Shown: positions 7,001 to 48,616 of the stretch, one piece after another | Layout: every line of letters starts with the position of its first letter | Position numbering within the stretch: the first letter of the stretch is position 1 | Assembly: GCA_030704615.1 (NCBI GenBank) | Contig: CM060734.1 | Span: forward strand, 18,848,001-18,912,000 | Origin: Takakia lepidozioides | Taxonomy: Eukaryota; Plantae; Bryophyta | Length of the DNA stretch: 64,000 nucleotides | Direction: 5' to 3' | Notes under the pieces: model-generated | Told to the model about the DNA's origin: nothing | Databases searched by the model: none | What the model saw: only the letters and a program-made list of their open reading frames with translations | Translations under genes and position numbers: made by a program

Positions 7001-7999
7001 TGTTTGTAGTCCCTTCGGTGCTAATCACTATTTGAATCAATGCAGCAAGAACTGGCAGAGGCAGCTGAGAAGGGAAAATCCGAATATTACCGCACTACAC
7101 CAGAGGAACTAAGGACATCAAAGGGTGTGGAAGCAGCAATAAAAAAAGAGTTTGAAATGCGAAGAACCAAATTGATATCCGCCTTTGGAAAGCAGCTTAG
7201 AATAGTAGATCATGGACTTGGTTCTGAGTTCCTTCAGCAGATCAAATCTCACTATGACAAGCATGTGCATCCGGAGATGCAGCAGGAGAAATTGCACCGG
7301 CTGGCCATATCCATGGTCGACCCACAAACAAAAATAAGGTGGTTGGAGATATGGAACTCAGATCAGACAGTAAAGGACTTGAATCAGTTCCCAAATAGCA
7401 CCATACAGCCTGGCACAAAGGTGGAAGGAATCAGTGATTTGGTGTTTGATAACTGGCTCCACAATGCTACATTTTGGAGTCAGGTGTGTATTCAAATAAG
7501 CCGTTTTCTTTTCTTCAATTATGTGATGAGTATCTTACTTGCAATCCTGACAAATATACAATTTGCAGCTCGAAAAGCGCGCCGTCATTGTGCTGGATCA
7601 GACTTTGAAGGACTTGAACATTTCGATTGTTTCCCCTCCGCAAATGTCATTGGAGGCATACATAAGGAAGTGGAGAGGTCTCACCTTGAGATACTGTTTT
7701 TTCCGGGAGTTCTCCAAAGATGGTAACATTTTACGGTCCAACGACTTTGACAGTCAGGTTGGAGGAGAGTGGGCCATGATGCGAGTTGTGTATAGGTGCA
7801 ATATCATACTGGAAACTCTACTGCACTTTTTGGGAAATAATTTGGCTTAATAAGGATTGTAATCATAGATCCAAATTGAATGTCGTTGACGACATTCACT
7901 TCTTTGTCTGAGTCATTCTTAAGCGAGAATTTGAATTCACCTGGATTAGGAGCTTATGGTGTAATTATAGTGTCCCTGATTAGAATTGATAATGTCCCT

Positions 8000-8351
8000 T
8001 GTCAAGTTAAATAAGCACAGTGTGAAAACAACTAGAATAAAACTAGTTATTTGTATTTAACACTTGGATTTAGGTCAAGTGTTAAATCAGGTGTCAAGTT
8101 TAGTTTGACACCTGAACCGCCTTATCTTCAGAGAGCGGCAGTCCGCGCAGCTCATCTCTCTCGAGTTGAGCCTGCGCGACCGAGCTCCTGCATCGTTTAG
8201 GACTGAGTGTGCTTATGATGTATAGGTTGTTGTGGGGTGGAGTCCCCATAGCTTGGGGTGCCCCTGGCTCGACTTCTGTTTTAACGAGTGATAGCGATGG
8301 ATTTCATGTTGTTTCTGTGTGTGACAGTGTGTCTCTTAGCTTGTTCTATCA
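8000..8351 (+). repeat. Copy 1 terminal repeat A1
   Basis: Direct repeat of 19680-20035 (TGTCAAG...TTCTATCA); also matches 61872-62155. Confidence 0.92.
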
Positions 8352-8363
8352 CTCGAGAGAGAT
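8352..8363 (+). promoter_or_regulatory. Self-complementary primer-binding site (no tRNA-type TGG start)
   Basis: CTCGAGAGAGAT directly after A1 is the reverse complement of ATCTCTCTCGAG at 8154-8165 inside A1. Confidence 0.75.
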
Positions 8364-11300
8364 CTCTTACCTGTGAGTGCAAGGTAGGAGTTGAGGTTAG
8401 CACTTGTATGATTACCTGTGTGAGAGTAGTGCTTAGTTTAAGAAGCTTAAAAAATAAAAAAATATAACAAAAATATGCAGGTTTCGATCAGCGTTGGTTT
8501 GGCATGAGGCCGCCGGGCAGACGGAGCTACACTGCATGGAAGCAGCCTTCGTTTTGGTCAGTGAGGAGACATCATGGAGTAGCAGCGATTGCCGTTGGGA
8601 AACTGACCAAGTGCGAGACTTAAAGGGGTACCTGTGATCGAGCAGATGGGTAGAACTTCCGTGCCTGGAGATGGCCGGCTGCTCGCCTTAGTTCGATGTG
8701 CATAGACCAGACGGTCAGGAAAGGCAGCGGAAGAGCAGGTGGAGCTGGTGTAGTGGAGCCAGTTGAAGGAGGAGCTGTAAATCCGCCCCCTCCAGTAAAT
8801 GCAGCGCCAGCAGGTAGAGCACGGCGCAGCGAGCTGGTTGAAGGTGAAGGCCCCGAGAGAGAAGCCTAGCAGCAAAGCGATGGAGAACGGGGAGCCCATT
8901 GCTGGCATATCATCAACACTGCAAACCAGGAGTCTCACAAATCTTCATGCTACTTGTGATTGTGGCTGGGAAAGCTGCTTTCACCTGGTCGATTATCTGC
9001 ATAAGCAACCAGCTTCCTGACAAAAAGGGTTGTTGGGGGCATTGTTGATTTCGGGGAGTGCAAGGTGCAAAGTCGTTTTTAAGTGCTTCAGGTTTGTACA
9101 AAGCCAAGTAGCTGTTGCTACCTTGCACCTTGGTTCCACCATTTTGAGGTGGAAACTGGTGGAAAGTCGAATGGTGGTTCACAACCCAGCTTTCAACTCA
9201 GCACACTGCCCGAGTCCAAGTTTGTCACCATATATCTGACACTGCTCCTCCGTCCGCCAATGGTTCTGATTTTTGAAAGATAAGTTCTTCCTTTAAGACC
9301 AAGTCCTCACAAGTCCTCCTGACTTGGTGCAGGATTGTGGCGATACAGGTCAAGGAGCTCCAGCTCTACTTGTCTCATCATTGAACACTTCCAACTGATC
9401 ACTTGCCTCTACTGTCATTTCGGCGTCAAGGGTACTTACTTCTCTGCACAGTGCTGGTCCTGGAGTCTTAGTGCGAGATACCACATTCATTTAATTGGTG
9501 CAGGAATATGAGCTCTATCAGCTTCTGAACTCCAGGATTATCCCTTAGTCTGGTGTATGGGATGACCCATCTGAAACACCACGATCAGCAAGGTGACCCG
9601 AACTGGCACAGAACTGGGACAACCCAGGTGCAGTTGGTGGCCTTGACCAGACCTCAAGGCCGTACTCATCCAACCGGTTAGAGAGGAGATGGGAGCTGTG
9701 ATGGTATTCATAGTATTCATGCAGCTGCCTTGGTGGGACAGTGAATGCGAGACTGGCAGCTCAACTTGGCATTGGGATCGTAATTCAGTAGCAGGCTGAT
9801 TGGAGTTAAAGAGGTTTTGGTCATGCCAGTGTCCGAGCAGCCATGAATCTTGGTCAGATTTTTTGAAGGTATGTTGCATTGCGTAGGCAGTGTTCCAGGG
9901 ATTCTGAAACCCAAGCGAGCAGCATGTGCAGAGCAGTGCACGGGTGAATTGACCAACGCCCTACCTTTAGAATTCTATTTTGCGATCTGCCAGAGAAAGA
10001 CAGCCAGCTTTGCAGGATGTTTGATTGAGGGAGCAGTGCATAGCGAGGCCAGTGATTTGAATGCCGCTGAATCTGTCACGGAAATGACCTGATTAGGTTT
10101 GGCTGAGCATGTAACCAAGTGTCGGGCAATGGAGGCAACGGCCCTTGCTGGAGGATGCATATCCAAGATGCAGGGATGGTCCTGGATGATGCTGGCATAA
10201 CCTGCATTTCCTCTGGCTGCTCCTACAATCTGGTTTATGTGCCCCTGGCACTATAGTGCTGAGCCGATCAGATATTTCCGATCTGGTGCTTTCCGGGGTT
10301 GCATTGTAAGTGTTCCTGCTTTTGTGGGAATATTGGTGCAAGGATTAAGGCTCAGCATAGCTACGGATCTCGACTGGAGGAGAGCCAGTCACTGGAACCA
10401 GGGAACAAGAAACCAGGGAACAGGAACCAAGACAAGTATTGAAAATAGAGTTTTCCTTGTATTTGTTTTGTCTTATATGAAAAAAAAAAATAAAAAAATA
10501 AAAAAATGTGTTATGTTTAAAGAGCCTGGTTTGTCATATCTTTGTCAAATGAGCTCCGTTTGACTCAGTTCTTGAGGGGATAGCTGCAGAAAGGGGATAT
10601 CTACCTATCTAGGTTTTTGTTTTTGGGACTCTGCTAAAAATCTATGGAATTTTTAGAGTGTGAGTGTGCCATGAAAGATCCACAATTCTGTTTCTAGAAC
10701 CTGTTCTGGTCTATATGAGAGACAAATCTGTGGATGTTCTCCTTGTATGGCTGGGGGAAATGAGGACGTAATTGAAGGGCAGTCTCTTCTCTTAGCCTGT
10801 GCACACAAGGGGACAGGATTTATGTTTCCCAAGGAACTCAGACTGATTTGAGTGGAGAACAGTTGGATGAGTTGATTGCATACTGGGAGTCAGGCATTAG
10901 CAGTAGACAACAAACTGCTGTAGTTGGCGTTGAGGGCCTCAATTGCTTTGGATAGTCAGAACTCTGTTGGAGCCAGCAGTTCTGCAGCTGTAGGTGAAAT
11001 ACCAAAGTGGGTGAAAGCTAGGCTTGGAACACAACCAAAGACAGCCCCAGGGACCAAGGTGTTCAGCCACAAGGCCGTGGTGTATTGGAGCAGAGGAGCA
11101 GGAGCTGCACAAGTTTGTGCAATCAGACATGGTTGCAGCCGGATACGCTCTGCACAAGGCAACCACGAGCGGGGGTTCATTAGCAATGACAAGTTTGTTT
11201 TGCTTGAAGGAGATGCAGTCATTCGCAATGAGACACCCGCAACCGTCTCAAAGCTTATCGAGTTGAGAGACTATCAGACCCTACCTTGTTTTTCTTTAGT

Positions 11301-12037
11301 GTTTCAGTGAGCGGGAGATAGGGGAGTATTGCTTTGTCTCTACCTGGCAGAAGAGGAGGAGGGTTGGTTAGAGCGAGCTACTGTAGCTTGGGACAAGGTT
11401 AGTGGCAGGTTTTCTGGACCATAGCTATACCACTTACACCCTTACCATCATGCAGAGCGAGGCACTTTGAGAGAAGTCTGGCAGTTGATAGCATAGATCA
11501 GGATTAGATCTTGCTTGGGCGGGCTTCTATTCTTCCCCTCCATCTCTGTACTATTTTCATTACCTTGTACTCGTAGTTGCCAAAGCCCTCTCTTGGTGGA
11601 GGCCAGTCAGTCCGGGTTTTGGGCTGGGCTATTCTGCAGGATCAAGCATTGCAGCTGGATTTTGGTGTGGGGGTGTTGATGTTTGATTTCTTGTGTTTGG
11701 ATCCCCCCCAACACCTGCATGCTTGATTGTGCACCATGTTTGGTTTTTGTGGGGGCGCTTTGCTTTCATAGGGATTAGGCCGGATTTGATCACCGGTCAA
11801 TCCTAGAGTATGTTGTCGGTGTGAGGCTGAAGTGATGACCAACAAGACCACCAGTTTTTTTCTTCTATGGTGAGACTGGGTTGATGACCAGCCAACCATA
11901 AGAGTTCTTGCGGTGGATGCAGGTGTAGGTGCCCTGAGCCACTGGGATATGACCCTTAAACTGCAACAGGTGCCTACCCGTGTCACTATTAGAATTAGTA
12001 ATAGAGCCTTATAGTGTCACGTGGGGAGGTGCACATT

Positions 12038-15000
12038 GTGAGTGTCATCACGGAGTTACCCAGGGGTTCTGAGGGGAGTACGGCTACAGGCAGTAGCAGT
12101 GAGAGTGGGTTCACCAGACGAGGTGTTCGTTTCAGACCACCTTCACCTCCACCCTCAATTAGTGCAGAGTCAGACACAGACTCGGAGGCTTCATCAACAG
12201 GTGTGCAGTTTCATTCGCCATTGTTGTGGGACGACATGGAGGAGATGTATGGAGCTACCAAGGGGCCTCATAGGTACTCTGGAGCTGTGGGCACAATCGA
12301 GTTGGATGACGTTATCCAGGAGTTTGACAGCTGGTGTGATTGCAAGCAGATACGCAATCCACAGCTATTCACCCCATTCATGGCGTGGAAGGGACTGTTC
12401 CAGCATTTGGAAGGCCCGCCTATGGACGATTACCAACAAGTTCAGGTGAGGACATGAAGCAGAGATTGAGGAGTGGAGGATGTATTGGTCACCTGACTAC
12501 GTCTCCATTACTCGAGGCACGACGCGACCAGTAGTTGCATCAGTACCAATATCTCCCCTGCCAGCACTAGTAGTGGAACAAGTAGTGCTGATACTTCTGC
12601 AGGTGGTACCAGTTCAAAAAGGTGCTACTACTCCTCCTGCCACGACTGCAACACATTGCCTAGATTCAACCCGGTGGTGGAGTTCTTCCAGGAGTTTGCG
12701 GAGGAACTACCAAGGTGTACGGACAGAGAAGCTGCGAAGTTTGCAAGACTTCCAGCGCAAACCCAGTGAGAGCTTGCGAGAGGCCTACACTCGTATGAGG
12801 CGCTTGATAAGTGTGACCCAAGGGGTTACTGAAGCTCAGGCAATCCAGTTCTGGTATGAAATTTTGGACAAGGAGCTCAGGAGAAGGGTGTGGGATGCAA
12901 CCCTGTTACAAGCAGCCCAACCCACATTAGCAGATGTGTTTCTGCTGGCTGAGCGGATTGAGCTCAACATGGTGGAGGAGCCAGTTTTTACCATTGGGTT
13001 TGGCAAAGACATGCCTGCACGAGGCGCAGCTGCCAGCCCACAGGCACAAGGGACTGCCCAACAGCGTGGTCAGGGGGGCAAGGTTTCCCAACCCAAGTTC
13101 CATGGAGCTTACAGGGGACCTCAGGTGCAGAGGCCCGTGGCATCTTTTGCAGGCCCAACAACCAGGGGTGATATGTTGGACATGTGGAGGACCCATGTCA
13201 AGAGAGATTGCCCAGAGAGTGGCAAAAGGCCGGCACAAACACAGCCTGCACAGTTGCAGTGTGGGCATTGGGGGAAGTATGGGCATGGAGATGCCCAGTG
13301 TTATGACTTGCATCCTGAGTTGCGCCCAGGCCAGTTCCAAGGGAACAATGGTGGCCAGGGGCGAGGTGGACCAGCCCAGAGAGGACGAGGTGGTCGGGCA
13401 CGAGGTGCAGGCCAAGGGCAAGCTCAACATGGCCAAGGACGCGGAGGTTAGGGTGTTGACCAAGGCATGGCCAACCGGCTTCAGCAGCTAGAGCAGAGGC
13501 TCGCTGCCATGGCTACAGCTCAGGCGGTACCGGCTCCCAGGGATGGTCCACCTCCTGTTCCTGAGGGAGAAGATATGGGAGGCATGGGATTCATGTGCGG
13601 AGCAGCACTACCACTAGAGCAGGTGGAGTCTGCTGCAGCCGTGACTCGAGGAGCAGCACGAGTTCCTGAACCACGAGGTGCAGAGGTGGAGTTGGATCCA
13701 CAACGTGGGGAGGCAAGCCGTCAGGCGAGGCTACCTCAGTCATTCACCTTGGCAGAGACAGTGTCAACGCCATCCATGGCACCTAGTTCTCGCCCGACTG
13801 TTACCGAGGCGGAGGTTTCTATGCCATTGGGGAGAGCTACACGTGCAGCATGACACCTGCTGCCAAGGCTAGTGCAGCCGGTGTGTTGTTGGGGGCAGCC
13901 ACCTCTGTGTGTCAGCCCCACTGTTCTTGGCAACCATAATTGCGACGCCGGGGGTAAGACCAGCTGCAGTGTTCAGACTAGCAGCAACACTCTGTGAGAG
14001 TGGGGAGGTCACTTCATCTTCTGCGGAGTTACTGGAAGGTGTAGTGGCAGAGGGATCCTCGGATTTGAGGGTCAAGACTGCCACGGCTGTGCCATGGCAA
14101 GCTGCAGCTGCCAGGTTGACGGAGCTGCCAGCTAGGCTAGCCTTTGAGCGCGCCATGGTGACACCTGGAGTTGTCTTGTTAGACAACCAGGATGACATTT
14201 TCTCTTTGAGTGGACCGGCAGGCAAGAAGTACCGGCCACTGCGGGTCTTGTTGGACTCGGGAGCTCAGCCACTGATGTTGGGCAGAGCTGCTATTGCAGG
14301 TTTGGGCCTCATGGAAGCGGATATGGAGCCTTGTCCTTTCCAGATACAGACATGTCTGGGAGATCAGAGCAGGCTCAGGGCATGACACCGCATCAGTTGG
14401 CCATTAGACTGCAGCCGGATCATCCTATCGATGGCTCAGTAATGCGAGCCAATGTCATTGTGATAGACGCGGTCTCTTACGATGTCCTCGTTGGTAGGGC
14501 AGTGTTATACCCCATGGGCTTCACCCTAGACTTTTGGGAGGAGTCAGCATTCTACAGGCCTGGATGGCAGTCAGGGGATGGTCGTCGTGCACAGCTCCCT
14601 GTGACATTCATTGGGGGTATTGCGGCTGCCCAACGGGGCAAGATGCCAACACTAGCCGCCTTTACAGCTTTGGTTAGTTGGCCTGGAGAGTTGCTGGAAG
14701 GCAATGCCCATGCAGAGGATTTGCCACCTCCAGCAGAGCAGGATGACATGCATGGTATGGCGGAGTTGCCTGCCATGGTTGCTCAAACTCCATTGTGGGG
14801 TACGAGCAAGAATTTGCAGCAGGTTGCTGATCGACGGGTGCAACAAGCCTGGGTAGAGGCTTTTGTACCGTCAGGAGAGGAGGAGAGTGCGGGTATTGCA
14901 CCAGGACCACCTTAGTTGTCACCATTGGATACCACACCTATTGTGTGGCAGTATCCGGATAAAGACATTTGCCTTCTGGACTTGTTTGGCGGGATCAGCA

Positions 15001-16214
15001 CCGGATTGGCTGTTGTGCTATAGGCAGGTGTGCGGGTAAGGCGTTACCTGTATGTGGAGAGGGATGAGACTGCACGACGCGTCTCACTGCGCCATATTGC
15101 TTAGTTGGTACAGCAGTACCCTGCTTTGTTGCCAGTGTCTGCAGTTCGTGGATACCAACAAGCCTTGCCAGCAGACATTTCGTTGCTGGGGGCGCCGGAT
15201 TTGGAGCAGGTTGGCTCCATTGATCTGGTAGTGGCAGGTTGGCCCTGCCAAGGGCATTCATCAGCCGGGCATCGCAATGGATTGCGAGACTCAAGGACGG
15301 GTCTGTTTTGGGAGATGGTGCGGATTTTGCGCCACTTGCAGCTTCATCAAGCTGTATCACCAGCATACATCTTGGAGAATGTGCCACTGATGGGCGATTC
15401 TCGGGCCAGGGTGATGGCCAGTGTGCATCAAGTCCGGTCGTGGCTTGGGTCAGCAGTGTTGTTGGATGCAGCTGCAGTGGGATCACGGGCTCATCGTCCA
15501 CGGCTATGGTGGACTAACTTGATGCCACCCGCACTGCTCAAGCGTGCATTTGATGGGGTGCAGCGGCCAACACACCTCATAGTGGACAGCATTTTGGACA
15601 CAGGGAGGCAGTCTCAACGTGTGAGACACGATGACCGTTCGCCTTTGGCAGTGGTCAACAGGGTGGGTCAACCACGAGCAGTATTACCTACACTGCTCAG
15701 CTTCCCAGGATCCCATGCTTTTCGGGATGGTGGACCTGGCCCCTTGTGGGATGCTCAATTGCAACAGTTAGTGGAGCCTAATGCCGACGAGCGAGAGCGG
15801 GCTATGGGGTTTTCCACTGGGACCACGGCGGTGCCTTCTCTTTCTGAGGCATCACGTCGTCAGGTGTTGGGGCAAGCAATGGATCTCAATTGCTTGACCT
15901 GGATTATCAGCTTGGCTATGGCTGAGCAACGTAGAGTGCGGAGTGCACTTCCCTTGACGGTCTCTCTGCCTACCGAGACGGTACAGGCAGCGAGTGGGGG
16001 TGAGCCGATGAGGACCACGGGGTGTAGACATCCATGGCACACGTGGGAGGTGCTCGAGGTCCAGAGGGAGTTGGCAGCCAAGGCAGCTGTGATGGATGAG
16101 GTTGGGGATTCTTTTCGGGTTGAGGAGGTTCTCAATGATGAGATGATGGGGCAGGATGAGGCCTTGTCATTGACTGAGCAGGAAGGGAGTACTGCTCAAG
16201 AGGTTGCAGCATAG
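12038..16214 (+). pseudogene. Copy 1 Gag-protease-DNMT polyprotein (several frameshifts and premature TAGs)
   Basis: ORF pieces 12014-12457, 12480-13451, 13467-13853, 13909-14385, 14331-14915, 15105-16214. Contains LLDSGAQP (aspartic protease), DLFGGISTG, AGWPCQGHS, ILENV, HRPRLWWTN, ERAMGF and RRQVLGQAM. Colinear with copy 2. Confidence 0.88.
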
Positions 16215-19200
16215 CAACCACGGGACGCGACCTCTACCTCTAAGCCTACTGGACTTAAGGTTGCAGTTACGGAGGACAATTGGGAGCCTGACATTGGACC
16301 CATTGTCACCGGAGGAGAGAGACGACGTATGCGGCGGTTCCTGAGGGCTTACAGGAATTGCTTTGCCTTCACTTTGAAGGACTTGGGAGCACTGAAGGGT
16401 CAAGAGATTCGCATTGAATTGGCTACTGACACGCCAATCTTTCGGAGACCCTATAGATACAGTGACATGGAGAGGTCCTTGATTCAGATGAGAACTCAGG
16501 ATCCTTGGGAGGCAGGTTTGGTGGAGCTCTCTGGTGAAGAGTATGCTTCAGCCACAGTGATGCCAGCCAAGAAGGATGTCTATGGCAATTGGACGAGAGA
16601 CGTATGTGCGGTGATTACCGGCCTGTAAATCGTCAGACCAAGTCCGATAGGTATGCTCATGCCGACACCAGAGGAGATCTTTGATGCCATTGGGCATTCC
16701 AAGGTCTTTAGCACGTTGGATTTACGATCCGGATATCACCAGTTGGCGATCAGGAGGCGGATAAGCAAAAGACGGCATTCTGGGGGATCAATGAGCACGG
16801 GAAGGATTGCCTATACCAGTGGCGGTTCTTACCATTTGGGCTTAAAAACGCTCCTGCTGAGTTTCAAAGGGTCATGGACAGGATTCTAGCAGGGGTGGAG
16901 TTTGCTCGGTGCCACATAGATGACAGCATCATCTTTAGTGCTACGGTGGAGGAGCATGAGAGACACCTTCAGGGGGTATTTGAGCGCTTGAGGACGCACG
17001 GATTGAAGTTACATCCGGGAAAGTGCAAGTTTTTCCACAACCAGATTGAGTATCTGGGTCACATGATATATCCTGGAGGATTGGGGGTACAGCAGACTAA
17101 GGTAGAGTCCATTGCACAGGTTCCACGCCCCACGGATGTGAGCCGAGTTCGAGCTTTCATGGGGTTAGCAAACTATTACAGACGGTTTGTTAAGGGATTT
17201 AGTGCCATTGCAAATGCTCTAACCAAGCTGACCAAGGTGGACCAGGAGTGGCAGTGGGAAGATGAGAGAACAAGCTTTTCAAGAGCTCAAGGCGAGGTTG
17301 ACCTCGGCGCCCATCTTGAGACGACCTATTAGGGGGCTGCATACAGATTGGAGCATGCTGGGGCTTGGAGCGGTGCTCACACAGGTGGATGATGAGGGAA
17401 GAGAGTTCGTAGTGGCTTACGCTAGCCGCTCGAACAATGCTGCTGAGTCTAAGTATAGCTCATATGAGGGAGAATGCTTAGCTGCAGTGTGGGCCGTGGC
17501 ACACTTCAAGTGCTATCTATACGGCAATCTCTTCACCCTTGTCACGGATCACCAACCACTCAAGTGGTTGATGGAGTCAGACAAGCTTACGGGGAAGCTT
17601 GCACGGTGGGCACTCATCCTTCAAGAGTATGACTTTCAGGTGGTGCATCGACCGGGTTTGGTCAATCGCAATGCAGATGGGTTGAGTCGCAATCCATGCA
17701 CGAGCCAGCAGGATGACACTGGAGCTCGGTGGCATGGTGAGACGGACGAGGAGATGGTGCCCGGATGGCATGCATCTGCATTTCTGTGTATCTTGGCAGC
17801 GGAAGGCCAGGTTGGACCTGCAACAAGGATGACTGTAGATCAAGTGTCTGAGGACCTGAGGCCAGCAATGAGCAAGGTGGCGCCAAAGATATACATGAGG
17901 ATTCAGTTGTGTTGGACTACCTCCGCACTGGAGACACTGCAGCCACTGTGACTGCCAAGGAGAGGGATCGGATCCTACAACGAGCCAAGAGGTTCAAGTG
18001 GGAGGGAACACACCTACTCCGAGTGTGGAAGGATGGTCGAGTGAGGATTGTGCCTCACCCAACACAGCGGGCACGGTTAGTGCGGCATGCCCATGAGGAG
18101 TTGGGGCATTTTGGGGTGCGACGCACTCATAGTCTACTGCAGGGCAGTATTGGTGGCGTGGTATGCACACAGAGGTGCAACAATTTGTGGCTAGGTGCAT
18201 GGTGTGTGACAGGGTGCGTGCTTCATTCAACGCCCCTACTCCACAATTGCACCCTCTTCCGATCATGGGATTGGGCTACATGTGGAGTCTTGACTTTGCA
18301 GGGCCGTTGCCACTGACCATGCGCCACAACAAGTACGTATTGGTGATGGTGGAGCACTTCTCCAAGTGGATTGAATTGGTTCCATTGCCTGATAAGGCTA
18401 GTGAGGGAGCTGTGTATGCATTCTTGGATTGTGTGCTTAGCCAATTCGGTGCTCCAGCTGAGGTACTCATGGACCAAGGGAGAGAGTTCTTGGGGGAGTT
18501 TCAGGCTTTGTGTGACAAGGCCTTGATAGACCACCGCACCACTTCTCGGGATCATCCTGAGGCCGATGGCTTGGCAGAGAGAGTTGTTCAGACAGTAAAG
18601 AGGGGTTTGCGCAAGTATGGCTTGCAGAAGGGACACCTAGGAGATTGGGACCTTCAGTTACCCTGGTTAGCCATGGGCTACAGGTTCAGCAAGCAAGCAT
18701 CACTTGCCTCCTTCTCACCATACTTTCTTCTCTTTGGCCGAGAGCCGGATTTGCCTACATCCATTCGCAGAGAAGCTGCTACAGTTCTTAACCTTGACGA
18801 TCCGATGTGTGGGCACGTGCATATGAGCAGCGTGCAGAGTTGTTCAAGAAAGTCATGCCAATGGCTTTTGAGAACCTTGCCATTTCACAACACCGTGATA
18901 CGTTGAGGTATGCTACCATACGTGGTGGGGGCTATCGTCCTGGGGTTCGGAGATTCAACCCTGGTGACTACGTCTATCTACAGCAGACTGCTCCTACGAC
19001 CTTGGATGTGACTGCAGGATGTGTTATTTTGAGGGTTCGAGAGGTCTTGCCCTCAGGCGTCTTGGTCTTGGAGGGTCGGGATGGCATAACTTGGAAGGAC
19101 CATGTGCGTAATTGTCCGCCATGTCACCTTCCGAATGTCGATGGCAGGATAGACCCAAACTTGGCAGTGGTATCTGCAGGTTTGAGGTGCATGTTGTGTG

Positions 19201-19361
19201 GGTCTGCTAGAGGGGCAGCCACCATGCTGGTGTGTGATCGATGCTCTAGAGGTTGGCATATGGGATGCTTGACTCCACCTCTTGAGATGGTTCCGGATGG
19301 GGATTGGTTATGTCCACATTGCATTTGGATAGTGGGAGTGGATACAACCATGGAAGGCTAA
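16215..19361 (+). pseudogene. Copy 1 RT-RNase H-integrase-PHD (frameshifted)
   Basis: LDLRSGYHQ and HIDDS (degenerate YIDD) for RT; HTDWS...EGECLA...TDHQPL...NADGLSR for RNase H; HEELGH...CMVC, LDFAGP/DQGREF/GLAER for integrase HHCC and DDE; CMLC...CDRC...HMGC...CPHC for PHD. Confidence 0.9.
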
Positions 19362-19581
19362 CAAGAAACGCAAGGCCCAGCTATTAAGAGACCTTGAACA
19401 CACGAGGTCCTGGCTCAAGTTCACATATTGCAAGACGGCGACTAACGATGGGGCTACTCTTGTACCCGGCCTCTTGGTCTATAGGGTTTGAGTGCAATAG
19501 GGACAGTGATAGAGGACTTAGTACGGCTGTGGCTATTACATCTTGTAGCTATCTGGAGGTAGAGGGACCTACCCACCAGCT

Positions 19582-19591
19582 AGGGGGGCGA
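19582..19591 (+). promoter_or_regulatory. Polypurine tract of copy 1
   Basis: AGGGGGGCGA immediately before repeat B1; identical at 61774-61783 in copy 3. Confidence 0.7.
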
Positions 19592-20121
19592 TTGTGGCAG
19601 ACTACTTTATTGTGCATATATGTGTGGTGTGGTTTGGACAACGATGTAGTTATGTAGCGATACGTATGCGCACGACAGCTGTCAAGTTAAATAAGCACAG
19701 TGTGAAAACAACTAGAATAAAGCTAGTTATTTGTATTTAACACTTGGATTTAGGTCAAGTGTTAAATCAGGTGTCAAGTTTAGTTTGACACCTGAACCGC
19801 ATTATCTTCACGAGAGCTGTAGTCGCGCAGCTCATCTCTCTCGAGTTGAGCCTGCGCGACCGAGCTCCTGCATCGTTTATGACTGAGTGTGCTTATGATG
19901 GGAGTATAGGTTGTTGTGGGGTGGAGTCCCCATAGCTTGGGGTGCCCCTGGCTCGACTTCTGTTTTAACGAGTGATAGCGATGGATTTCATGTTGTTTCT
20001 GGTGTGAACAGTGTGTCTCTTAGTTTGTTCTATCATTGTGGCAGACTACTTTATTGTGCATATATGTGTGGTGTGGTTTGGACAGCGATGTAGTTATGTA
20101 GCGATACGTATGCGCACGACA
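19592..20121 (+). repeat. Copy 1 3' terminal block B1 (19592-19677) - gc - A2 (19680-20035) - B2 (20036-20121)
   Basis: 86-bp B (TTGTGGCAGAC...GCGCACGACA) occurs twice, flanking A2. The B1/A2 junction is the perfect palindrome GACAGCTGTC. Confidence 0.92.
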
Positions 20122-20125
20122 CCCT

Positions 20126-23817: not shown

Positions 23818-26800
23818 CTCCCCTCAGTAAGCAGGTCTTGGTATATGCAGAAGAGCACGGACCTACCCCTGGGGGGTTTCCCCTCATAAACATACGCACA
23901 TCTCACTTTCCAAAGGTTCCACAAAGTTAGAGCCCTAAGGCTGGCCCATACAGGGGAAGCAGAATGCATGTGAGCAGGCAGGAAATTCAGCATGAGCAGA
24001 GAGTGTGGGGGGGGGGGGGGGGGGGGATGGGAAAGACTCCCAATTGGCGTAAAAATTCAGATCAGCTCGCCAAACTCTGGCAGGGAAGGGGCAGTCTACC
24101 AGACAATGCTCTATGGACTCTGGCTGGGTCATGCACAAACAACAGTTAGCATTGTTGTTGAGAGCCCTAGCATTTACTGGAAGAATTCTATGAGCCAGTT
24201 TCCACAAAAATGCAGAGATTTTAGCAGCCCTTTGTTTCTTCCATATATCCTTCCATATCGAATCCCCAATCACCATGCGTCAAATTCAGATGCCTCCATT
24301 TTTCACTCCATCTAGAAAAGAAGGATGTAGTTGGCCTCAAGAGGGAATAACCTAACTTGACCTTGTAAGCAAAGAAAGGGGAGTGGTTGTCGTCAGCCTA
24401 GCTCCACTCCCCTGGGTCAAAGTAAAGAGAAGCCAGGGAGTTCAGGAACCAGGTGAGGTCCGAATGCAAGGCCCATTGCATTTCCTGTCCTGCCGGGGGG
24501 GGTTGGGTTGGGGTTGCCCTTTCCATCCAACACTCTAATGGGATACAGGTGTTGCTTATGGATATCCAGCGAGCCCGTGATTCTCAAGCTTCCTTCACAA
24601 TCTGCCAAGAACGCGATTCCCGAGGCAATGTGGTCCTGCAGGGAGAGCACAAGCAGGGCTGTATTACCATTGCCGTTTGATGAAGCCATCCAGGCTGGCA
24701 GAGACCCCAAGTCTTCTCCAGATCTGAGCAAAGGGGACATGTAGTCCGGAAATGCCTGCAGCAAGGATGGCCAGGCTCTGGCACGTCTGGTACCCACCAA
24801 TTGTGCCGTTGTAGCTGCGGGCAAAAACTCATTGTGCTCCCAAGCAGCCCCCACTTGCGTGAAACCAGCAGATTCCCAGAAGCCCCACTTGGGTAGTGAC
24901 AACATCTCTGAGTTCATGATGGAATTCCAAAACAGGGGCTGTCTGAATGTTTCTGCGAAGCTTACCGGAGGTCTTTGGATCAGCTTGCCTTTTATGGACT
25001 GCCAAGCTGCCCAGATTGATTGCCAAGGACAGGATCCGAGCTGCACATTAGCATTTTTCCCTTGCACAATCCAACGCAAAGAGTGAGCCCAAAGGGGGGA
25101 AAAAGAGGGTATTGCCCCCATTAAATATGGCTGGATTAGCTTACTCCAGGGGCTATGTCGGTGATTGAGCTCTAGGAATCCACTTGGCCAGTAGGGCCTT
25201 TATTTGCGTCGCTGGGTCCAAAAGGCCCAGCCCTCCTTTTTTTTTCGGTTGACGGAGCTGCTCCCAGAAAATCAGAGCCCTTCTAACTTGGGAGTGCGAG
25301 GATGCACCCCATATGAAATTTCGTATGAGTGCTCTAATCTCCTTTACCATGATTTTTCCTGGATCCCATATAGCTGCAGAGAACCAGCAAGATGCGAGAA
25401 GCACCTGGTTTGCCACCAGTGCTCTTCCAGCAACGGATAGCATGGAGGAGCACCAATGTGCCAAAGATCTTTTCAGCCCAGAGATCACTTTTTGCATTCT
25501 ACTTTGTTGGGACAAGTCAAGTCCAATCTGGTGGCCCAACAGAGTGTGTGACTCCCCAGCCCCTAGCCATTGCAGCCCAATATCTTGCCCCCATGGATTA
25601 CAGTGAGTCGCAGCCTGACTATTCAAAAACTGAGAGGAGACCCATGGACTTCCTCCAGTTGATTCTCAAGCCTGAGCCTAGGCAAAAAACTTGCAAGGCT
25701 TGAAGAGCACGGTCGATGTTGTCACGGGTCGAATTGTCCAGCAGCAGGGATGTATCATCGGCATACATTGGGAGCTTAACCATTTCTGGCACATGGGTAG
25801 GTAAATGAAGGCCCACAATGTCATGTGTAGCCTCAAACAAATGTCCAAGTGAATCTGCAGCAATTAAGAATAGGAATGGTGCCAAGGGACATCCTTGCCT
25901 CACCGACCTAGAAATAGGAAAAGATTGGGATATCACTCCATTCACCATCACCCTACTAGAGATAGACTGCAATAGTATTCGAACCCAAGACATAAAGTGG
26001 CCTTCCAGACCCGATTTTTCTAAAGTAGCCAAGAGAAAAGTCCAGTCAATAGAATCAAAAGCTTTTTCAAAGTCAAGCATCGGGAAAACAAGTGGCTGGT
26101 TGTTCAAGGTGGCTCTGTGCAATGCCTCATGGGCCAAAAGAATGTTGTCCAATATCATATGGTCTTTGAGGAATCCAGTTTGCTCCTTTCTGATAATTTT
26201 CGGGAGCAAAGGTTGAATCCTCAAAGCTAAAGCCTTGGCAATGATTTTGTAAGAAAAATTGAGTAAGGTTATGGGGCGGTAGTTAGCCACTTGTCCCTTT
26301 CTCCTTTCTTGTAAATCACTGTGACAAGGCCCTCTGAAATCTGCGAGGGCATCGCTTGTTTGAGGAGGATGTCATTGGCCATGGCAAGAAAGTCATCCCC
26401 TATGGTTTGCCACAAAGCTTTAAACAATTCAGCAGGCAGCCCATCTAGACCTGGACTTTTGAAGGATGCCAAGGCGTCCGCTGCCTTTCCAAGCTCTTCC
26501 ATGGTGAAAGGTTCTGCCATCCTTATCTTGTCAGCAGCAGAGAGAGAGCATGGAATGTTTATGAGGAGAGCATTTCTTGCCTCTTCCACCAAGGGAGTAT
26601 GGTCTCTCTTTTGGAAGAGCTTCTGAAAAAGTCAGCAGCAATGCTGGACATCTTTTTCGGGACAGCAGTTGAAGTACCCGATGCATCACGCAGGGAGGGG
26701 ATCAGAATAGAAGCACGGCGTTGGGCTGCTTTAGCAAAAAAGTATTTTGTCATTTTTTCTCCCTTTAGTGACCAGTTGACGCCAGCCTTTATCCTAATGA

Positions 26801-37570: not shown

Positions 37571-39054
37571 GGCAAAACTTCTTTAATGCTCTCAAGCTCC
37601 ATGAGATCCTGGGTTCAATGCTTGAAGGCCATGGCATTCTATGTTCAATGCTTCAACGCCATGAGATCTTGGGTTCAATCTCCAGCTCCATGATATCCTG
37701 GCTAAGTTCATTAATGAAAATATTAGAAGATGCCAATACTTGCCAGATAGCTGAATAGTAATTTCAACCCATAAAATGTTACCCATTTTCTTCTCCCAGT
37801 TTATTTAGAGTATTTTTTTTTTTTCGTGTTAGTGAAAATTAATAAAATCGTTGGATTTTAGTTCAAATATGTGAATACATTGCTATTTAATCTCCCGGAC
37901 TGATAAAATATTTTAAATCTAATTAAATTAATATATATATATATATAATTTAATTTAAAAAAAAAACCGGAACCGTGGTTTTTATCAGCAACTAACCGGT
38001 AACCAGAACCGCCCCCATGTTTAAAAGTTGGATCCGGAACCGGACCGGAACCGGCTCAATAAAAAAAAGCCGGGTAAAAGCAACCCAGGCGGCCTCGTGG
38101 CAAGGGGCTCACACCTGTGAAGCACCAAAAGGTGCCTTGCCAGGCTGGTGAGTAGCATTACGGAGTGTAAGCCACTCGTGCAAATACAAAGGATTTTTTT
38201 TGGAAATTCTTTACGAAATGCAGAATGCACCGGCCATTAGATTTTTTTTAATTTTTTGGCATTTCTTTACTCAAAGTAATGCGGGCATTCCAAGATGTTC
38301 GGGCCTTCCCCTCGGGCTACCGCCCTCAGCGTCAGGCCCTTAAATCAAGGAATGCCCTCCACTCAGGACATTACCTATACATAATCCGCACCATATATAT
38401 ACTATATAATAATAATAATATACATACTATATAGTTTGATCATCAACATGAAGCGAGACGTTTGTTGGCCCTGCCTTCTCAAGGCAGGACTACGCAAAGG
38501 GTTTCAGCGTTTCAGCTTGTTTGACACCGATACTTTCGATTACGCTTCCAATTCAATCGAGACAGTTGCCACCAGAATATTCTGTCCATATTTCTAATGA
38601 ATGACATTCGTTGGTCAAGAAGAAGATGGTTGATTGGTTGATTCACAAAATTTGCGCAGTCAGCATGCAAAGTGGAAGAGGAGTCAGCACAAATCTGATG
38701 CATGTGCCAACAAGTGGCATCGAGTCCTTGTCAAGTTATTTTACCACTAGTGTGAAACTAGCTAGGAAATAGCTAGCTTTTACATATTGACATTTGGGAT
38801 TGGCCCAAGTGTCAATCCAGGGGTCAAGGCAGATTTAGGCCCTGGAGTGGTTATCTTCACGGCAAGCGCGGGAGGCTCATCTTTCTCGAGTTGAGCCTCA
38901 CCGCGCCTAGCTATGGCGCCGTAGTGTGGATTCCCCATGGCGTGGGGTGCACTTGGCTTGACTTGTATTTGAGTGATGAGGTTATATATGCATGAGTTTA
39001 TGCTTCAGCTTTGTGAGCTCGCATGAGCTTGTGCTTGTATCTTCTTCTTTATCA

Positions 39055-39070
39055 CTCGAGAAAGATGAGC
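39055..39070 (+). promoter_or_regulatory. Self-complementary primer-binding site of copy 2
   Basis: (A)CTCGAGAAAGATGAGC at 39054-39070 is the exact reverse complement of GCTCATCTTTCTCGAGT at 38875-38891. Confidence 0.8.
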
Positions 39071-39679
39071 TCGTATCTATGAGTGCTAGATACGAGTTAG
39101 TTGTAGCACTTGTGGTTTTTGCTTGAGAATGAGAGAAACCAAGTTGTTATGCAAGGAGCACCGTGGAGCTCTTGGTTGTTAGAAGCGGAGGCGATGTGGG
39201 TTACGAGGTGGTAAACCTTGGCATTCGATCTTCAGCTTCAGAGATGAAAGCACCATACTGTAGGTAATTCCAGAGCACCTTGATGGTTTCAGATTGTGTA
39301 CATGCATGAGCAAGCACGATTGGGAAGAGGACCAGTCAAGAGCAGGTTATAGTGGCTTTGGTGGCAAAGCTGAGAACTGGACTTGGGAATGCGAGCTTCA
39401 TTGTGTGAAGGATTGCAAGACCAAGCGAAAGGGCTGATTTGGCTTGGGGCAAATCAGTGCACTTTGTGGAGTATGGTGAGATTGGGTTTCAATCTCGAGC
39501 TTCAGCATTGAGAGGGGCTCTTGTCATGGCGAGAGCAGGGCTGGAACAGGAGCTAAGAGGTGCGGCAAGGCCATGGAATGTGCACCTAGGGTTTCAGAGC
39601 TTGGAAGAAGAGCTCTTGCACCACAAGAGAAGTGTCTTGTGGCTGGAAATGTAAGCCTTAGGGTTTCAGGAGCTTGGCA

Positions 39680-40579: not shown

Positions 40580-41560
40580 GTGTGGGGCTGTGGCTGTGGC
40601 AAGCTGTGACGGGCTGTGACGGGCAACGGGCTGTGACGGCTGTGGCAAGCTGTTTGTGATGGGCTGTGACAGGCTGTGCCCTGTGCCCTGTGGGGCTGTG
40701 ACGGGCTGTGTCAGGCTGTGACAGGCTGTGCCCAGTGGCCTTTTGGGCTGTGACGGCTGTGCGGGGCTGTGACAGGCTGTGCCCTGAGGCCTGTGGGGCT
40801 GTGACGGGCTGTGACAGGCTGTGTGGCCTTTGGGGCTGTGATGGGCTGTGAGGGGGCTGTGACAGGCCGTGCCTGAGGCTGTGAGGGCTGTGATGGGCTG
40901 TGACAGGCTGTGCGCCCTGTGGGCTGTGACGGAGGCTGTGTGCCTGAGGGGGGCTGTGACGGGCTGTGAGGGGCTGTGCTGTGGCCTGTGACCTGTGAGG
41001 GGCTGTGGAGGAGGCTGTGACCTGTGCTGTGACAGGCCGTGCCCATGGCCTTTGGGGCTGTTGTGAGGGGCTGTGAACTGCCTGTTTGGGGCTGTGACCT
41101 GAGGCCTTTGAGGCCTGTGAAGGTGGGGGCTGTGACGGGCTGTGAGGGCTGTTGTTTGGGGCTGTGACGGGCTGTGAGGGCTGTGACAGGTGGCCTCTGT
41201 GACGGCTGTGACAGGCAGAAATGCCCATGGCCTTTGGGGCTGTGAGGGCTGTGAGGGGCTGTGAGTGAGGCCCTGTGACGGGCCTGTGTGGGGTGTGTGA
41301 GGGCTGTGACTGAGGCCTTTGGGGCTGTGACGGGCTGTGACTGTGACAGGCCGTGCCTGAAAAGGCTGTGACGGGCTGTGAGGGCTGTGACTGTGGCCTT
41401 TGGGGCTGTGACGGGCTGTGGTGTGTGAGGCCTTTGTGAGGGGCTGTGAGGGCTGTGACAAGGCCTTTGAGGCTGTGACGGCTGTGAGGGGCTGTGACAG
41501 GCTGTGCCCAGTGGCCTGTGGTGTGACGGCTGTGACCAGTGAGCTGTGTGGGCCTGTGCT
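40580..41560 (+). repeat. GGCTGTGA-based ~1 kb low-complexity tandem array in the copy 2 leader
   Basis: Dozens of (G)GGCTGTGA(C/G) units with strong G/T strand bias. Confidence 0.9.
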
Positions 41561-41912
41561 GGTCTGTGGTGGCCCGTGTTGACCTGTGGATGGCCTGTGC
41601 TGACTCGTGGAGGCACTGGTGGACTAAGGACTGGCATGTGGTCTGGAAGGCCGAATTTTGAAGCTCGTGGAGGGCGGTTTGAGGAGTATCTTCATGATAT
41701 TCCCATGGTCACGGCGGTTTGAGGAGTATCTTCATGATATTCCCATGGTCATGCAAGTTCAGGTGTAGGCTATGTTAGGAACTTAGTAATATTCCCCATG
41801 CAAGTTCAGGTGTAGGCTATGTTAGGAACTTAGTATTCCAAACCATAAGCCGCAACAGGTTCTCTACCCGGTTACCTTGTGGAGAGGGGGTTAGGGACAT
41901 GTTCATGACCGG

Positions 41913-44900
41913 TTGAGTGTCAACACGGAGGTGCCACTAGTTGCTGGGGACAGTGCCGGTTCGAGCACTAGCGATACTAGTGGGTACACGAGACGAGGTG
42001 TGCGGTTTAGGCCACCTTCACCTCCTGTGTCTTCCACGGAAGGTTCTGATTCGGATTGTGAATCAGGAGGGCTCATACAGGCGGTGCAAGTTGTTTCTTT
42101 GCCATTATTGTGGGACACAATGGAGGAGATGTATGGAACTACCAAGGGGCCACGAAGGTACTCTGGGGCGGTGGGCACCATTGAGTTGGATGATTTTATC
42201 CAAGAGTTTGATAGTTGGTGTGATTTGCAGCAAATGCGCAATCCACAACTATTTACGCCGTTCATGGCATGGAAAGGGCTGTTTCAGCACCTTGAGGGGC
42301 CGCCTATGGATGATTACCATGAGTTCAGGCGGGGGCATGAGGTTGAGATCGAGGAGTGGAGGATGTACTGGTCACCCGACTATGTCTCCATCACTAGGGG
42401 CACTAGAGCCACGAGGGCAGTGGCTACACCTGCCGCTGCACCGGCAGCTTCAGCAAGCAGCAGTGGGACTGGTGGTACAGTAGCTACGACGTCCACCCAA
42501 GCCACTACCGCACCAGCACTAGCACCCGTGCCTGCCTTCAACCCTGTTGTGGAGTTCTTCGAAGAGTTGAGAGGGAACTACCAAGGGGTGAGGACAGAGA
42601 AGTTGCGGAGCTTGCAAGAGTTCCAACGGAAGCCGACCGAGAGCTTGAGGGAGGCTTTCACTCGCATGAGGCGCTTGATAAATGTAACCCAAGGGGTTAC
42701 GGAAGCTCAGGCAGTCCAATTCTGGTATGGGATATTGGACAAGGAGCTGAGGAGAAGGGTGCGGGATGCAACTCTCCTACAAGCGGCCCAACCCACCTTA
42801 GCAAATGTGTTTTTGCTGGCAGAGCGGATAGAGCTCAACATGGTGGAGGAACGAGTGGTCATGGTGGGATTTGCTAAGGAGACACCACGGGGTAGTGGTG
42901 CTCCTAGCCAACCACTACCTCAACGTGCTCAAGGCAACAAGGGGGCTCAGGTGAAGCTCAGGGAAGGGCAGAGAGGACCTCAAATGCAGGGGTCTCTCCC
43001 TTCATTTGCTGGCCAACAACGGGCGGATGTGGTGTGCTGGACATGTGGAGGACCCCATGTCAAGAAGGATTGCCCAGAGGGAGGCAAAGGGTCGGCACAT
43101 GCACAGCCTGCACAGTTGCAGTGTGGGCATTGTGGCAAGCACGGGCATGGAGAGGCCCAGTGTTATAGTTTGCATCCTGAGTTGCGCCCAGGCCAGTTCC
43201 AAGGGAACAATGGTGGCCGGGGGCGAGGTGGAGCAGCCCAGAGAGGACGAGGTGGCCAGCCACGAGGTGCAGGCCAAGGGCAAGCTCAACGTGGCCAAGG
43301 ACGCGGAGGTCAGGGTGTTGACCAAGGCATGGCCAACCGGCTTCAGCAGCTAGAGCAGAGGCTCGCTGCCATGGCTACAGCTCAGGTGGTACCGGCTCTA
43401 AGGCCGGATGGTCCACCTCCTGCTCCTGAGGGAGGAGATATGGGAGGCATGGGATTCATGTGTGGAGCAGCACTACCACTAGTGCAGGTGGAGTCTGCTG
43501 CAGCCGTGACTCGAGGAGCAGCACGAGTTCCTGAGCCACGAGGTGCAGAGGTGGAGTTGGATCCACAGCGTGGGGAGGCAAGCCGTCAGGCTAGGCTTCC
43601 TCAGTCATTCACATTGGCGGAGACAGTGTCGACGCCATCCATGGCACCTAGTTCTCGCCCGACTATTACCGAGGCGGAGGTTACTATGCCATTGGGGAGA
43701 GCTACACGGGCAGCACCACTACCTAGTGTTGCCAAGGCTACGGCAGCTAGTGTGCTGTTAGGAGCGGCCACATCTGTGTGCCAGGCTCCATTGTTCTCGG
43801 CTACCATGATTGCGACGCCGGGATAAGACCAGCTGAGGTGTTCAGGCTGGCAGCTACACTCTGTGAGAGTGGGGAGGTTACTTCATCTTCTGCGGAGATA
43901 GTGGGAGGTGTAGTGCCGGAGGGATCCTCGGATTTGAGGGTCAAGACTGCCACGGCGGCGCCATGGCAAGCTGCAGCTGCCAGGTTGATGGAGCTGCCAG
44001 CTAGGCCAGCCATTGAGCGCGCCATGGTGACACCTGGAGTTGTCATGTTAGACAACCAGGATGGCATTTTCTGTTTGAGTGGACCGGCAGGCAAGAGGTA
44101 CCGGCCACTGCGAGTCTTGTTGGACTCGGGAGCTCAGCCACTGATGCTGGGCAGAGCTGCTATTGCAGGCTTGGGCCTCACGGAGGCGGATATGGAGCCT
44201 TGTCCTTTCCAGATACAGACGTCTCTGGGAGGATCGGAGCAGGCTCGGGGCATGACACGGCATGAGTTGGCTATCAGACTACGGCTGGATCATCCTACAG
44301 ATGGCTCAGTGATGCGAGCCAAGGCCATTGTGACAGACGCAGTCTCATACGATGTCCTGGTTGGTGGGGCAGTGTTGTACCCCATGGGCTTCACCCTGGA
44401 TTTTTGGGAGGAGTCAGCTTCCTATAGGCCTGCATGGCAGTCAGGGGAGGGCCGGCGTGTGCAGCTCCCTGTGACGTTCATAGGAGGAGTTGCGGTTGCC
44501 CAGCGAGGCAAGATGCCGACACTAGCAGCATTCACAGCGGCAGTGAGTTGGCCTAGAGAGTTGCTTGAGGGCAATGCTCATTCAGAGGATGTACCACCTC
44601 CGGGAGAGCAGGATGACATGTATGGTATGGCGGAGTTGCCTACCATGGTTGCTCATACTCCATTGTGGGGCACGAGCAAGGATTTGCAGCGGGATGCTGA
44701 TCGACGGGTGCAACAAGCCTGGGTGGAGGCTTTTGTACCGTCAAGAGAGGAGGAGAGTGTGGGGATTGCACCAGGACCACCTCAATTGTCTCCATTGGAC
44801 ACCACACCTATTGTGTGGCAGTCTCCGGATGAAGGCATTTGTCTTCTGGACTTGTTTGGCGGGATCAGCACCGGATTGGCTGCTTTGTTACAGGCAGGTG

Positions 44901-47992: not shown

Positions 47993-48616
47993 TGTCAAGT
48001 TATTTTACCACTAGTGTGAAACTAGCTAGGAAATAGCTAGCTTTTACATATTGACATTTGGGATTGGCCCAAGTGTCAATCCAGGGGTCAAGGCAGATTT
48101 AGGCCCTGGAGTGGTTATCTTCACGGCAAGCGCGGGAGGCTCATCTTTCTCGAGTTGAGCCTCACCGCGCCTAGCTATGGCGCCGTAGTGTGGATTCCCC
48201 ATGGCGTGGGGTGCACTTGGCTTGACTTGTATTTGAGTGATGAGGTTATATATGCCTGAGTTTATGCTTCAGCTTTGTGAGCTCGCATGAGCTTGTGCTT
48301 GTATTCTTCCTCTTTATCATTGTGTGGACTAGTGACTGCCATAGTGGGCAGCGTAGTGGCAGCCTAGTGACTGACTAGTTGTAGCCTAGTGGTTGGACTA
48401 GTGGTTGGACTAGTGGTAGACTAGTGGTATACTAGTGTGTGGTGTGCACATGTGTTGTGTGGTTTTGGACAGCGATGTAGTTGTGTAGCGATATGTATGC
48501 GCACGACATCCTCTTCCCCAACTCCCTACAAGGTTCTCCTTGCTTTCGTGGGAATTGGGTTTGCGATCTCTCCAGACGTGCTACGGTTGAGGATTGGGAG
48601 CTGTGAGAGGAGAAAG

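Follow-up and report, generated by a model that had tools for sequence, protein, structure and literature searches.

How does reverse transcription begin in a retroelement whose 5' repeat is followed by no tRNA-type primer binding site? The question was raised by a 64,000-nucleotide stretch of Takakia lepidozioides DNA (contig CM060734.1; hereafter the window, with positions counted from its first letter). An earlier note on this DNA had proposed that the element starting at position 8000 primes minus-strand synthesis with the 5' end of its own RNA. As a whole, the observations are best explained by taking positions 8352–8363 as the primer binding site of a Ty3/gypsy element with split repeats, and it is quite probable, judging from the sequence, that this site is primed by the first 11–12 bases of the element's own RNA and not by a tRNA.

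Organization of the element copies

Self-comparison of the window revealed in the first copy (copy A, 8000–20121) the order target site duplication (TSD), repeat A1, priming site, internal region, polypurine tract (PPT), repeat B1, GC, A2, B2, and TSD, all on the forward strand. Repeat A1 (8000–8351, TGTCA...TATCA) is 96% identical to A2 (19680–20035). The 86-bp repeat B1 (19592–19677) lies directly behind the PPT (19582–19591), ends in GACA, and is 98.9% identical to B2 (20036–20121), which follows A2 without a spacer and forms the right terminus. The end of B1 and the start of A2 make up a palindromic junction, GACA-GC-TGTC (19674–19683), a candidate internal integrase site. The 4-bp duplication CCCT flanks the copy at 7996–7999 and 20122–20125, and its gag-pol region (12005–19361) is decayed, with several frameshifts and stops.

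Copy B, on the same strand, begins with A1 at 38729–39054 and is bounded by the duplication TCCT (38725–38728 and 48509–48512). Its gag-pol (41895–47991) includes the methyltransferase, reverse transcriptase (RT), and RNase H and stops within the integrase zinc-finger region; at the 3' end (47991–48508) the integrase, PPT, and B1 are deleted up to the junction GC, and A2 (47993–48319, 99% identical to A1) and B2 (48320–48508) follow. A third, partial copy (copy C, 60818–62155, forward strand, 95.6% identical to copy A) contains the integrase end with the PHD finger, the PPT, B1 (61784–61869), AC, and a truncated A. In the long leader of copy B, degenerate tandem repeats with a 10-bp unit extend over about 1 kb (40592–41611), with minus-strand open frames of 326–389 codons that had no Pfam match; B2 of copy B has an 11-bp array at 48329–48437. 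The 3.6-kb leader of copy A has no array like that in the copy B leader.

Two other retroelements were found in the window. A chromodomain gypsy element on the minus strand (55048–60817) has 508-bp LTRs (98.6% identical), largely open frames, and a TGG-type site at about 60293–60304, which we take to be the plant initiator-Met site; it directly adjoins the copy C fragment, with no clear target duplication. An RT fragment at 25619–26371, also on the minus strand, matched RVT_1 only and is probably of non-LTR origin.

Protein domains and affiliation

The domains assigned to copy A by Pfam were gag (a weak match), C5 methyltransferase, RT, RNase H, H2C2 and rve integrase, and a C-terminal PHD finger. 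The methyltransferase is located inside Pol (15105–16214 in copy A, 43751–46084 in copy B), where PF00145 sits between the protease and RT; the catalytic PC and ENV motifs and the RxRxW motif are intact in each of the two copies (PCQGH, ENV, and RPRLWW in copy A). The CpG observed/expected ratio was 0.47–0.48 for the element and 0.51 for the window. From the second D to the E of the integrase (18133–18906 and homologues) there are 35 residues in 63 of 63 pattern-matched sequences (173 examined); most retroviral and gypsy integrases have one residue more.

The relatives used for comparison came from one metagenome scan, in which 80 of 310 confirmed loci were kept; 41 of the 80 match the repeats of two families (families 2 and 3), and locus L050 represents a fourth. 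The domain order gag-PR-RT-RH-IN with a DDE integrase, as expected for Ty3/gypsy, was found by Pfam in the window copies and L078, and the best solved-structure match of the RT was Ty3 RT (E 3e-74). TG...CA termini, a short target duplication, and a PPT before B1 were likewise present. Two complete equal LTRs, a further Ty3/gypsy feature, were missing, and an A...B-A-B layout was found instead in the window and in L061, L073, L076, L078, and L083. The Chromo domain was absent, with the PHD finger present, in copies A and C, L078, P0053, P0055, and P0059, and the same Pfam search detected a Chromo match in the other gypsy element of the window. SH3_Tf2-1 gave no match in the element, and no tyrosine recombinase match was obtained in the 44 ORFs scanned (23 + 21, the latter from copies A, B, and L078; some short ORFs lay outside the scan).

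The nearest named RT relatives were from Calypogeia (80% identity) and Marchantia (Mp_2g26090, 79%, with a methylase domain), followed by those from Closterium and Klebsormidium (about 43%–54%); K. nitens RTs were 46%–52% identical to the window element, and chlorophyte polyproteins have the same domains. In an unrooted RT tree, which had no K. nitens tip labelled KnitGypsy-Dnmt3 and no labelled Tf1, sushi, or Tcn1 tips, a branch of 0.96 (100/100) separated K. nitens and this lineage from three chromovirus-like RTs. A scan of viral contigs gave 30 loci with weak matches, of 29%–50% identity over part of the methylase domain. Both features tested for the Gypsy-DNMT3 kind, a C5 methyltransferase in Pol and DIRS-like split repeats combined with Gypsy domains, were found. 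By its domains and repeats, the element is a Ty3/gypsy element with split repeats, a C5 methyltransferase, and a PHD finger, and is probably kin to KnitGypsy-Dnmt3.

The self-complementary site behind repeat A1

No tRNA-type TGG follows A1, as the earlier note had observed; the site begins directly behind the terminal TCA, which ends at 8351. Every string quoted in that note was recovered in place: ATCTCTCTCGAG at 8154 and 19834 and CTCGAGAGAGAT at 8352 in copy A, GCTCATCTTTCTCGAG at 38875 and 48139 and CTCGAGAAAGATGAGC at 39055 in copy B. In copy A, the primer binding site (8352–8363) is the exact complement of 8154–8165, the predicted RNA 5' end and 12-nt self-primer. In copy B, the site (39055–39070) is a 16-bp complement of 38875–38890, within which the 12-nt core (39055–39066) pairs with 38879–38890 and the pairing extends to 38875. 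The duplex is as claimed, except that it had been described one pair too short: an extra pair between the terminal A and the next T brings it to 13 bp in copy A and 17 bp in copy B. The orientation also agrees with the earlier description, since the 3' G of the partner is paired with 8352 and directed into the end of the repeat.

When the bases of the repeat were shuffled 20,000 times, no shuffle contained the 12-mer. With one mismatch allowed, the best Watson-Crick counts were 13 and 17 in the two copies, and among 420 random 63-mers from the same loci a score of 13 was never reached and a score of 12 was reached twice. The chromodomain gypsy element of the window, which served as an internal control with its TGG-type site, had a self-complement of only 7 nt. 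By these counts, the self-complement of both window copies is beyond chance.

The compensatory change noted between the copies is present and consists of a single C-G/T-A exchange. Deamination usually produces C>T and G>A, which makes this exchange alone weak evidence for pairing; the strong evidence comes from the relatives.

Behind the site, a hairpin was predicted at 8364–8392 whose loop TGAGTGC is kept and whose stems are changed in copy B (39068–39098). It is possible that this modelled structure is a packaging or Gag-binding signal; inspection by eye of families 2 and 3 revealed no TGAGTGC-like loop after the site.

Predicted priming sites in related families

The earlier note had suggested looking for covariation in more subfamilies, and this check bore the pairing out: the sites of the four families differ, and each pairs with its own repeat. 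Pairing with the family's own partner was 11/11 or 12/12, versus 3–8 with the repeats of other families, and the window element and family 3 share only 47%–54% RT identity in near-full alignments. Families 2 and 3 comprised 23 distinct copies after three duplicates were dropped. Full pairing, with G-U counted, was found in 11 of them and pairing at 9 or more positions in 20; the other three (L031, L034, and L047), which are degenerate, paired at just 7–8 positions. Copies within a family are related, so that the independent units number about four. One copy, L092, has another compensatory change of its own. In all four families, the paired 3' end lies 0–2 nt from the TCA of the repeat.

A signature consisting of TCA plus an 11-mer with an upstream complement and a TATA-like motif was searched in 1,496,866 bases. 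It gave 11 matches, all at repeat-A ends and on the sense strand; its TATA patterns were derived from these same families, and copy B, with a spacing of 27, was missed.

RNA start and mechanism of priming

The conserved TTATCTTCA, reported to lie about 30 nt upstream of the primer sequence, was indeed present in the copies, at 8122, 19802, 38851, 48115, and 61994. On the forward strand of copy A it occupies 8122–8130, and it is likely a TATA variant or a TC-type core promoter element; in A1 of copy B it occupies 38851–38859, ahead of the partner at 38879–38890 with its pairing to 38875. The relatives have TATAAAA or TATAAAG where the window copies have TATCTT. From this motif to the first A of the partner there are 32 bases in 13 of 13 copies of family 3 (TATAAAA, with GATAAAA in one), 29–31 in 7 of 10 copies of family 2, and 29 in L050; counted from TATCTT, the distance is 31 in copy A and 27 in copy B. 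In plants, the TATAWA peak is described at –32, with a range of –39 to –26, and TC-rich elements share the TATA position (PMC2842252). A TATA box about 29–32 bases before the partner's first A makes it likely that the RNA starts at this A, i.e., at 8154 in copy A and 38879 in copy B, and not at 8150, the other end of the interval that had been proposed. An RNA start at the complementary segment is what Tf1-type priming requires, according to PMC4600332.

The primer had also been placed in a 12-nt hairpin loop. A hairpin around the partner was predicted (8141–8180, forward strand), but the nominal loop, 8155–8166, is one base off the partner, and a 3-bp mini-stem is predicted to close inside it. 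As its 5' arm precedes the predicted start, the modelled hairpin could arise only in A2, which is transcribed in full. In copy A, the predicted probability of the priming duplex was 0.64–0.75 when the RNA started at 8150–8154 and ≤0.06 with 10 or more additional upstream bases. A general rule by which the hairpin masks the partner in every RNA except one that begins there was rejected, as it held in three of seven tested sequences: the switch was predicted in copy A, copy B, and L050 and not in L059, L061, L071, and L078. In families 2 and 3, the predicted duplex did not depend on the absence of the upstream arm. The upstream part of repeat A (8000–8115 in copy A, 38729–38845 in copy B) is predicted to fold into a row of near-perfect short hairpins whose sequences differ between the copies; similar inverted repeats were seen by eye in L058 and L050.

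These data bear on where else the RNA might begin. If it started further upstream, the primer would be a piece of the hairpin loop released by two cleavages, or the loop itself would pair with the site, in place of the 5' end. Such a start would fit the hairpin arm before 8154, which both window copies and L050 keep although the stems have changed, as well as the complement of family 2 and copy B, which reaches 4–9 nt past the predicted start. We consider it improbable: with the arm included, the predicted duplex drops to ≤0.09 in copy A, copy B, and L050, the TATA spacing indicates the partner's first A, and the arm is transcribed in A2 anyway, where it could mask the second copy of the partner.

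Slightly less probable still is a real duplex with a structural role, such as circularisation, a dimer contact through CTCGAG, or packaging, with priming achieved otherwise. The 6-nt palindrome CTCGAG in the partner and site of the window element, its counterpart TCTAGA in family 3, and the conserved hairpins on either side of the site would suit such a role. Families 2 and 4, however, keep the complement without a palindrome; moreover, the paired 3' end, 0–2 nt from TCA in every family, coincides with the required start of the minus strand, and the homology of A1 and A2 stops at the same point. A host tRNA fragment or other small RNA as the primer, with the self-complement a by-product, is very improbable: half-tRNA priming is known in plant copia lineages (PMC6317226), but TGG is absent, one conserved host RNA could not match four different sites in four families, and Rfam on 7900–8600 gave nothing above the gathering score, with two weak matches, neither of them a tRNA. 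No tRNA genes were found within the 64-kb window.

Taken together, the complement, its family-specific change, its position behind the repeat, and the TATA spacing make Tf1-style self-priming of the element likely, and the match of each of the four families to its own repeat, with the promoter spacing of the relatives, upholds the original reading. The RNA would begin at A8154, and its first 12 bases would fold back on 8352–8363. Cleavage after G8165, by analogy with Tf1 performed by the element's RNase H, would provide the 3' OH. The minus strand would then copy A1 from 8351, jump to A2, and proceed through B1 and the PPT, and plus-strand synthesis would begin at B1.

Split repeats and formation of the ends

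If minus-strand synthesis begins at the A end and plus-strand synthesis behind the PPT, the working repeat would be B+GC+A, and the cDNA would extend from the B start to the A end; the integrated copies run from the A start to the B end. In 14 of 14 junctions, B ends with CA, followed by two nucleotides and an A start of T plus G, A, or C. The spacer was GC in five junctions, AC in five, GT in three, and TC in one; AC and GT would be the expected products of deamination of the palindrome. Both element termini are reproduced in the junction GACA-GC-TGTC, separated by 2 nt. In 8 of 11 cases, the A2|B2 joint lacks a spacer and equals the A end plus the first base after the PPT; one of the others differs by a base, and in L088 and L110 B2 is shortened exactly from the A end. 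The target duplication was an exact 4 bp in 8 of 10 elements with both ends, had a mismatch in one, and was missing in one. That B might be an LTR belonging to a small nested element was rejected, since in several families the A1 start and the B2 end are linked by the 4-bp duplication.

Since the A|B joint consists of the two priming-defined cDNA ends, it suggests that the ends were joined and an internal cut followed. In the proposed mechanism, the A end and the B start of the cDNA would be joined together, and the DDE integrase would cut the palindrome nearest the joint, GACA^GC-TGTC, on both strands. Cut in a staggered manner behind CA on each strand, the palindrome would leave ends resembling those of processed LTRs, and joining with the palindrome cut would yield the TG...CA ends, the 4-bp duplication, and the A...B-A-B layout. 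The deletion in copy B, a single case, stops at the junction GC (47991–47993) and looks like the ligation of a cut end into pol. We rate joining of the cDNA ends followed by an integrase cut at the internal palindrome before insertion, which is deduced from joint sequences, as having about even chances. The same balanced rating applies to its generalization, that in this green-lineage clade the integrase site has moved from the cDNA ends into the middle of U3, with joined-end DNA as an obligatory precursor. If so, the DIRS-like layout would amount to an ordinary LTR element in circularly permuted form, the palindrome would be cut in a restriction-enzyme-like manner, and joined-end (2-LTR-type) DNA would be no dead end but an integration precursor.

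If a circle carried two equal junctions, the mirror form A-B-A...B would be expected as well, yet none of 28 A1 starts (25 distinct) was preceded by B, so that a cut bias toward the joint-nearest site must be assumed. The uniform A|B joints within most families also fit inheritance through the RNA. As an explanation of the layout only, every round may instead reproduce the A2|B2 joint and B2 from the RNA through additional template jumps, a route proposed for PAT/Ngaro-type elements, and the linear ends would form with no joined intermediate. Copying of this kind is a possibility that we hold less probable than even: it agrees with the absence of the mirror form from the 28 starts, with joints mostly identical inside families, and with the same layout in PAT/Ngaro elements (PMC4157794). 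It does not lead one to expect a spacerless joint of the family's own A end and own post-PPT start in 8 of 11 cases, or two joints with B bases lost exactly from the A end; furthermore, both termini must still arise from the internal palindrome, and an internal cut is needed here too.

Several loci deviate from this scheme. In L057 (5640–5819), 11 nt of the site and five further bases separate the A end from B, which could reflect a retained primer copy, an internal deletion, or a mini-element; this joint was left out of the joint counts. Seven loci (L036, L039, L047, L062, L072, L103, and L105) have PPT-B ends without A2-B2, and L047 has an exact 4-bp duplication around A...B. They could be one-repeat circles, products of B1×B2 recombination, or collapsed assemblies, and were left out of the evidence. 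The order PPT-B-A-site in L050 is a tandem or collapsed repeat, and this locus was used only for its pair of partner and site.

Novelty and implications

Self-priming and the split layout have each been published already. A literature search that covered few subscription papers and no Repbase reports returned no report of their combination or of the proposed end-joining mechanism, and, with the same coverage, no paper on priming or end formation in the Gypsy-DNMT3 lineage. The element kind itself is already known and little studied, KnitGypsy-Dnmt3 having been described in 2018. Our results would extend self-priming beyond Tf1/sushi/Tcn1, where it is described, and TAR copia, where it is predicted, to a lineage without a chromodomain, and the primers differing by family make its origin, ancestral or repeated, testable. 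The priming sites fix both the start and the end of the cDNA, and the mismatch of these with the integrated ends offers a concrete test of an old question, whether joined-end circles are precursors for a DDE integrase. The methyltransferase lineage reaches liverworts, among which Marchantia is a laboratory model. LTR finders that require two equal LTRs are expected to miss such elements or to set their boundaries wrongly.

Comparison with known systems

De Mendoza et al. (2018; PMC5890265) described KnitGypsy-Dnmt3 from Klebsormidium nitens as having repeats with the structure of DIRS elements together with Gypsy domains. The window element resembles it in its Gypsy domains, the DNMT in Pol, and DIRS-like repeats, and differs in that its nearest named relatives are liverworts. 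The terms "primer binding," "split," and "PHD" are absent from the main text of that paper, and "PBS" and "primer binding" from its text supplements; no mechanism for the layout is given in these parts of PMC5890265. A streptophyte Gypsy-DNMT3 is named in the 2026 DAM-LTR preprint (10.64898/2026.05.21.726589), in whose available text "primer," "PBS," and "circle" do not occur. Gypsy-7a_cRei of Chlamydomonas, compared by its description, is also a gypsy element with a PHD finger and LTR subparts, its left LTR lacking the final 8 bp of the right one; unlike in the window element, a methyltransferase is not listed in the figure legend (PMC9940879).

The likeness to the Tf1/sushi group drawn in the earlier note held for the priming mechanism and not for the rest of the element, which has a PHD finger and methyltransferase without a chromodomain, and split repeats versus two full LTRs. 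The Tf1 primer is 11 nt long; primers of 11–12 nt and the Ty3/gypsy domain order are shared. As in Tf1/sushi and the plant Tcn1, the site lies directly behind the 5' repeat and complements the predicted RNA 5' end (PMC4600332, PMC6317226). The test feature of these elements, a complement of their own RNA 5' end in place of a tRNA site, was found here as the complement together with the promoter spacing. Among plant chromoviruses, self-priming was predicted for Tcn1, and it was also predicted for TAR copia; the consulted text of that survey contains no mention of Marchantia, Klebsormidium, or PHD (PMC6317226).

With PAT, TOC1, and Ngaro elements and SymbioDIRS-Dnmt3, the window element shares the A1...B1-A2-B2 order and a B-A junction that reproduces both termini (PMC4157794, PMC5890265). 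It differs from them in having an rve integrase of the DDE type, a PPT, and TG...CA ends flanked by 4-bp duplications, and a recombinase domain was not found in it. The integrases of foamy virus and HIV-1 can cleave palindromic 2-LTR junctions (PMC1180852, PMC1905944), and the cut proposed for the window element would similarly be made by a DDE integrase at an internal palindrome of two att ends. In those viruses, the circle joint itself forms the palindrome, and normal LTRs are retained after integration, whereas the window element inherits its palindrome within the repeat, and the joint between its two ends would lie elsewhere.
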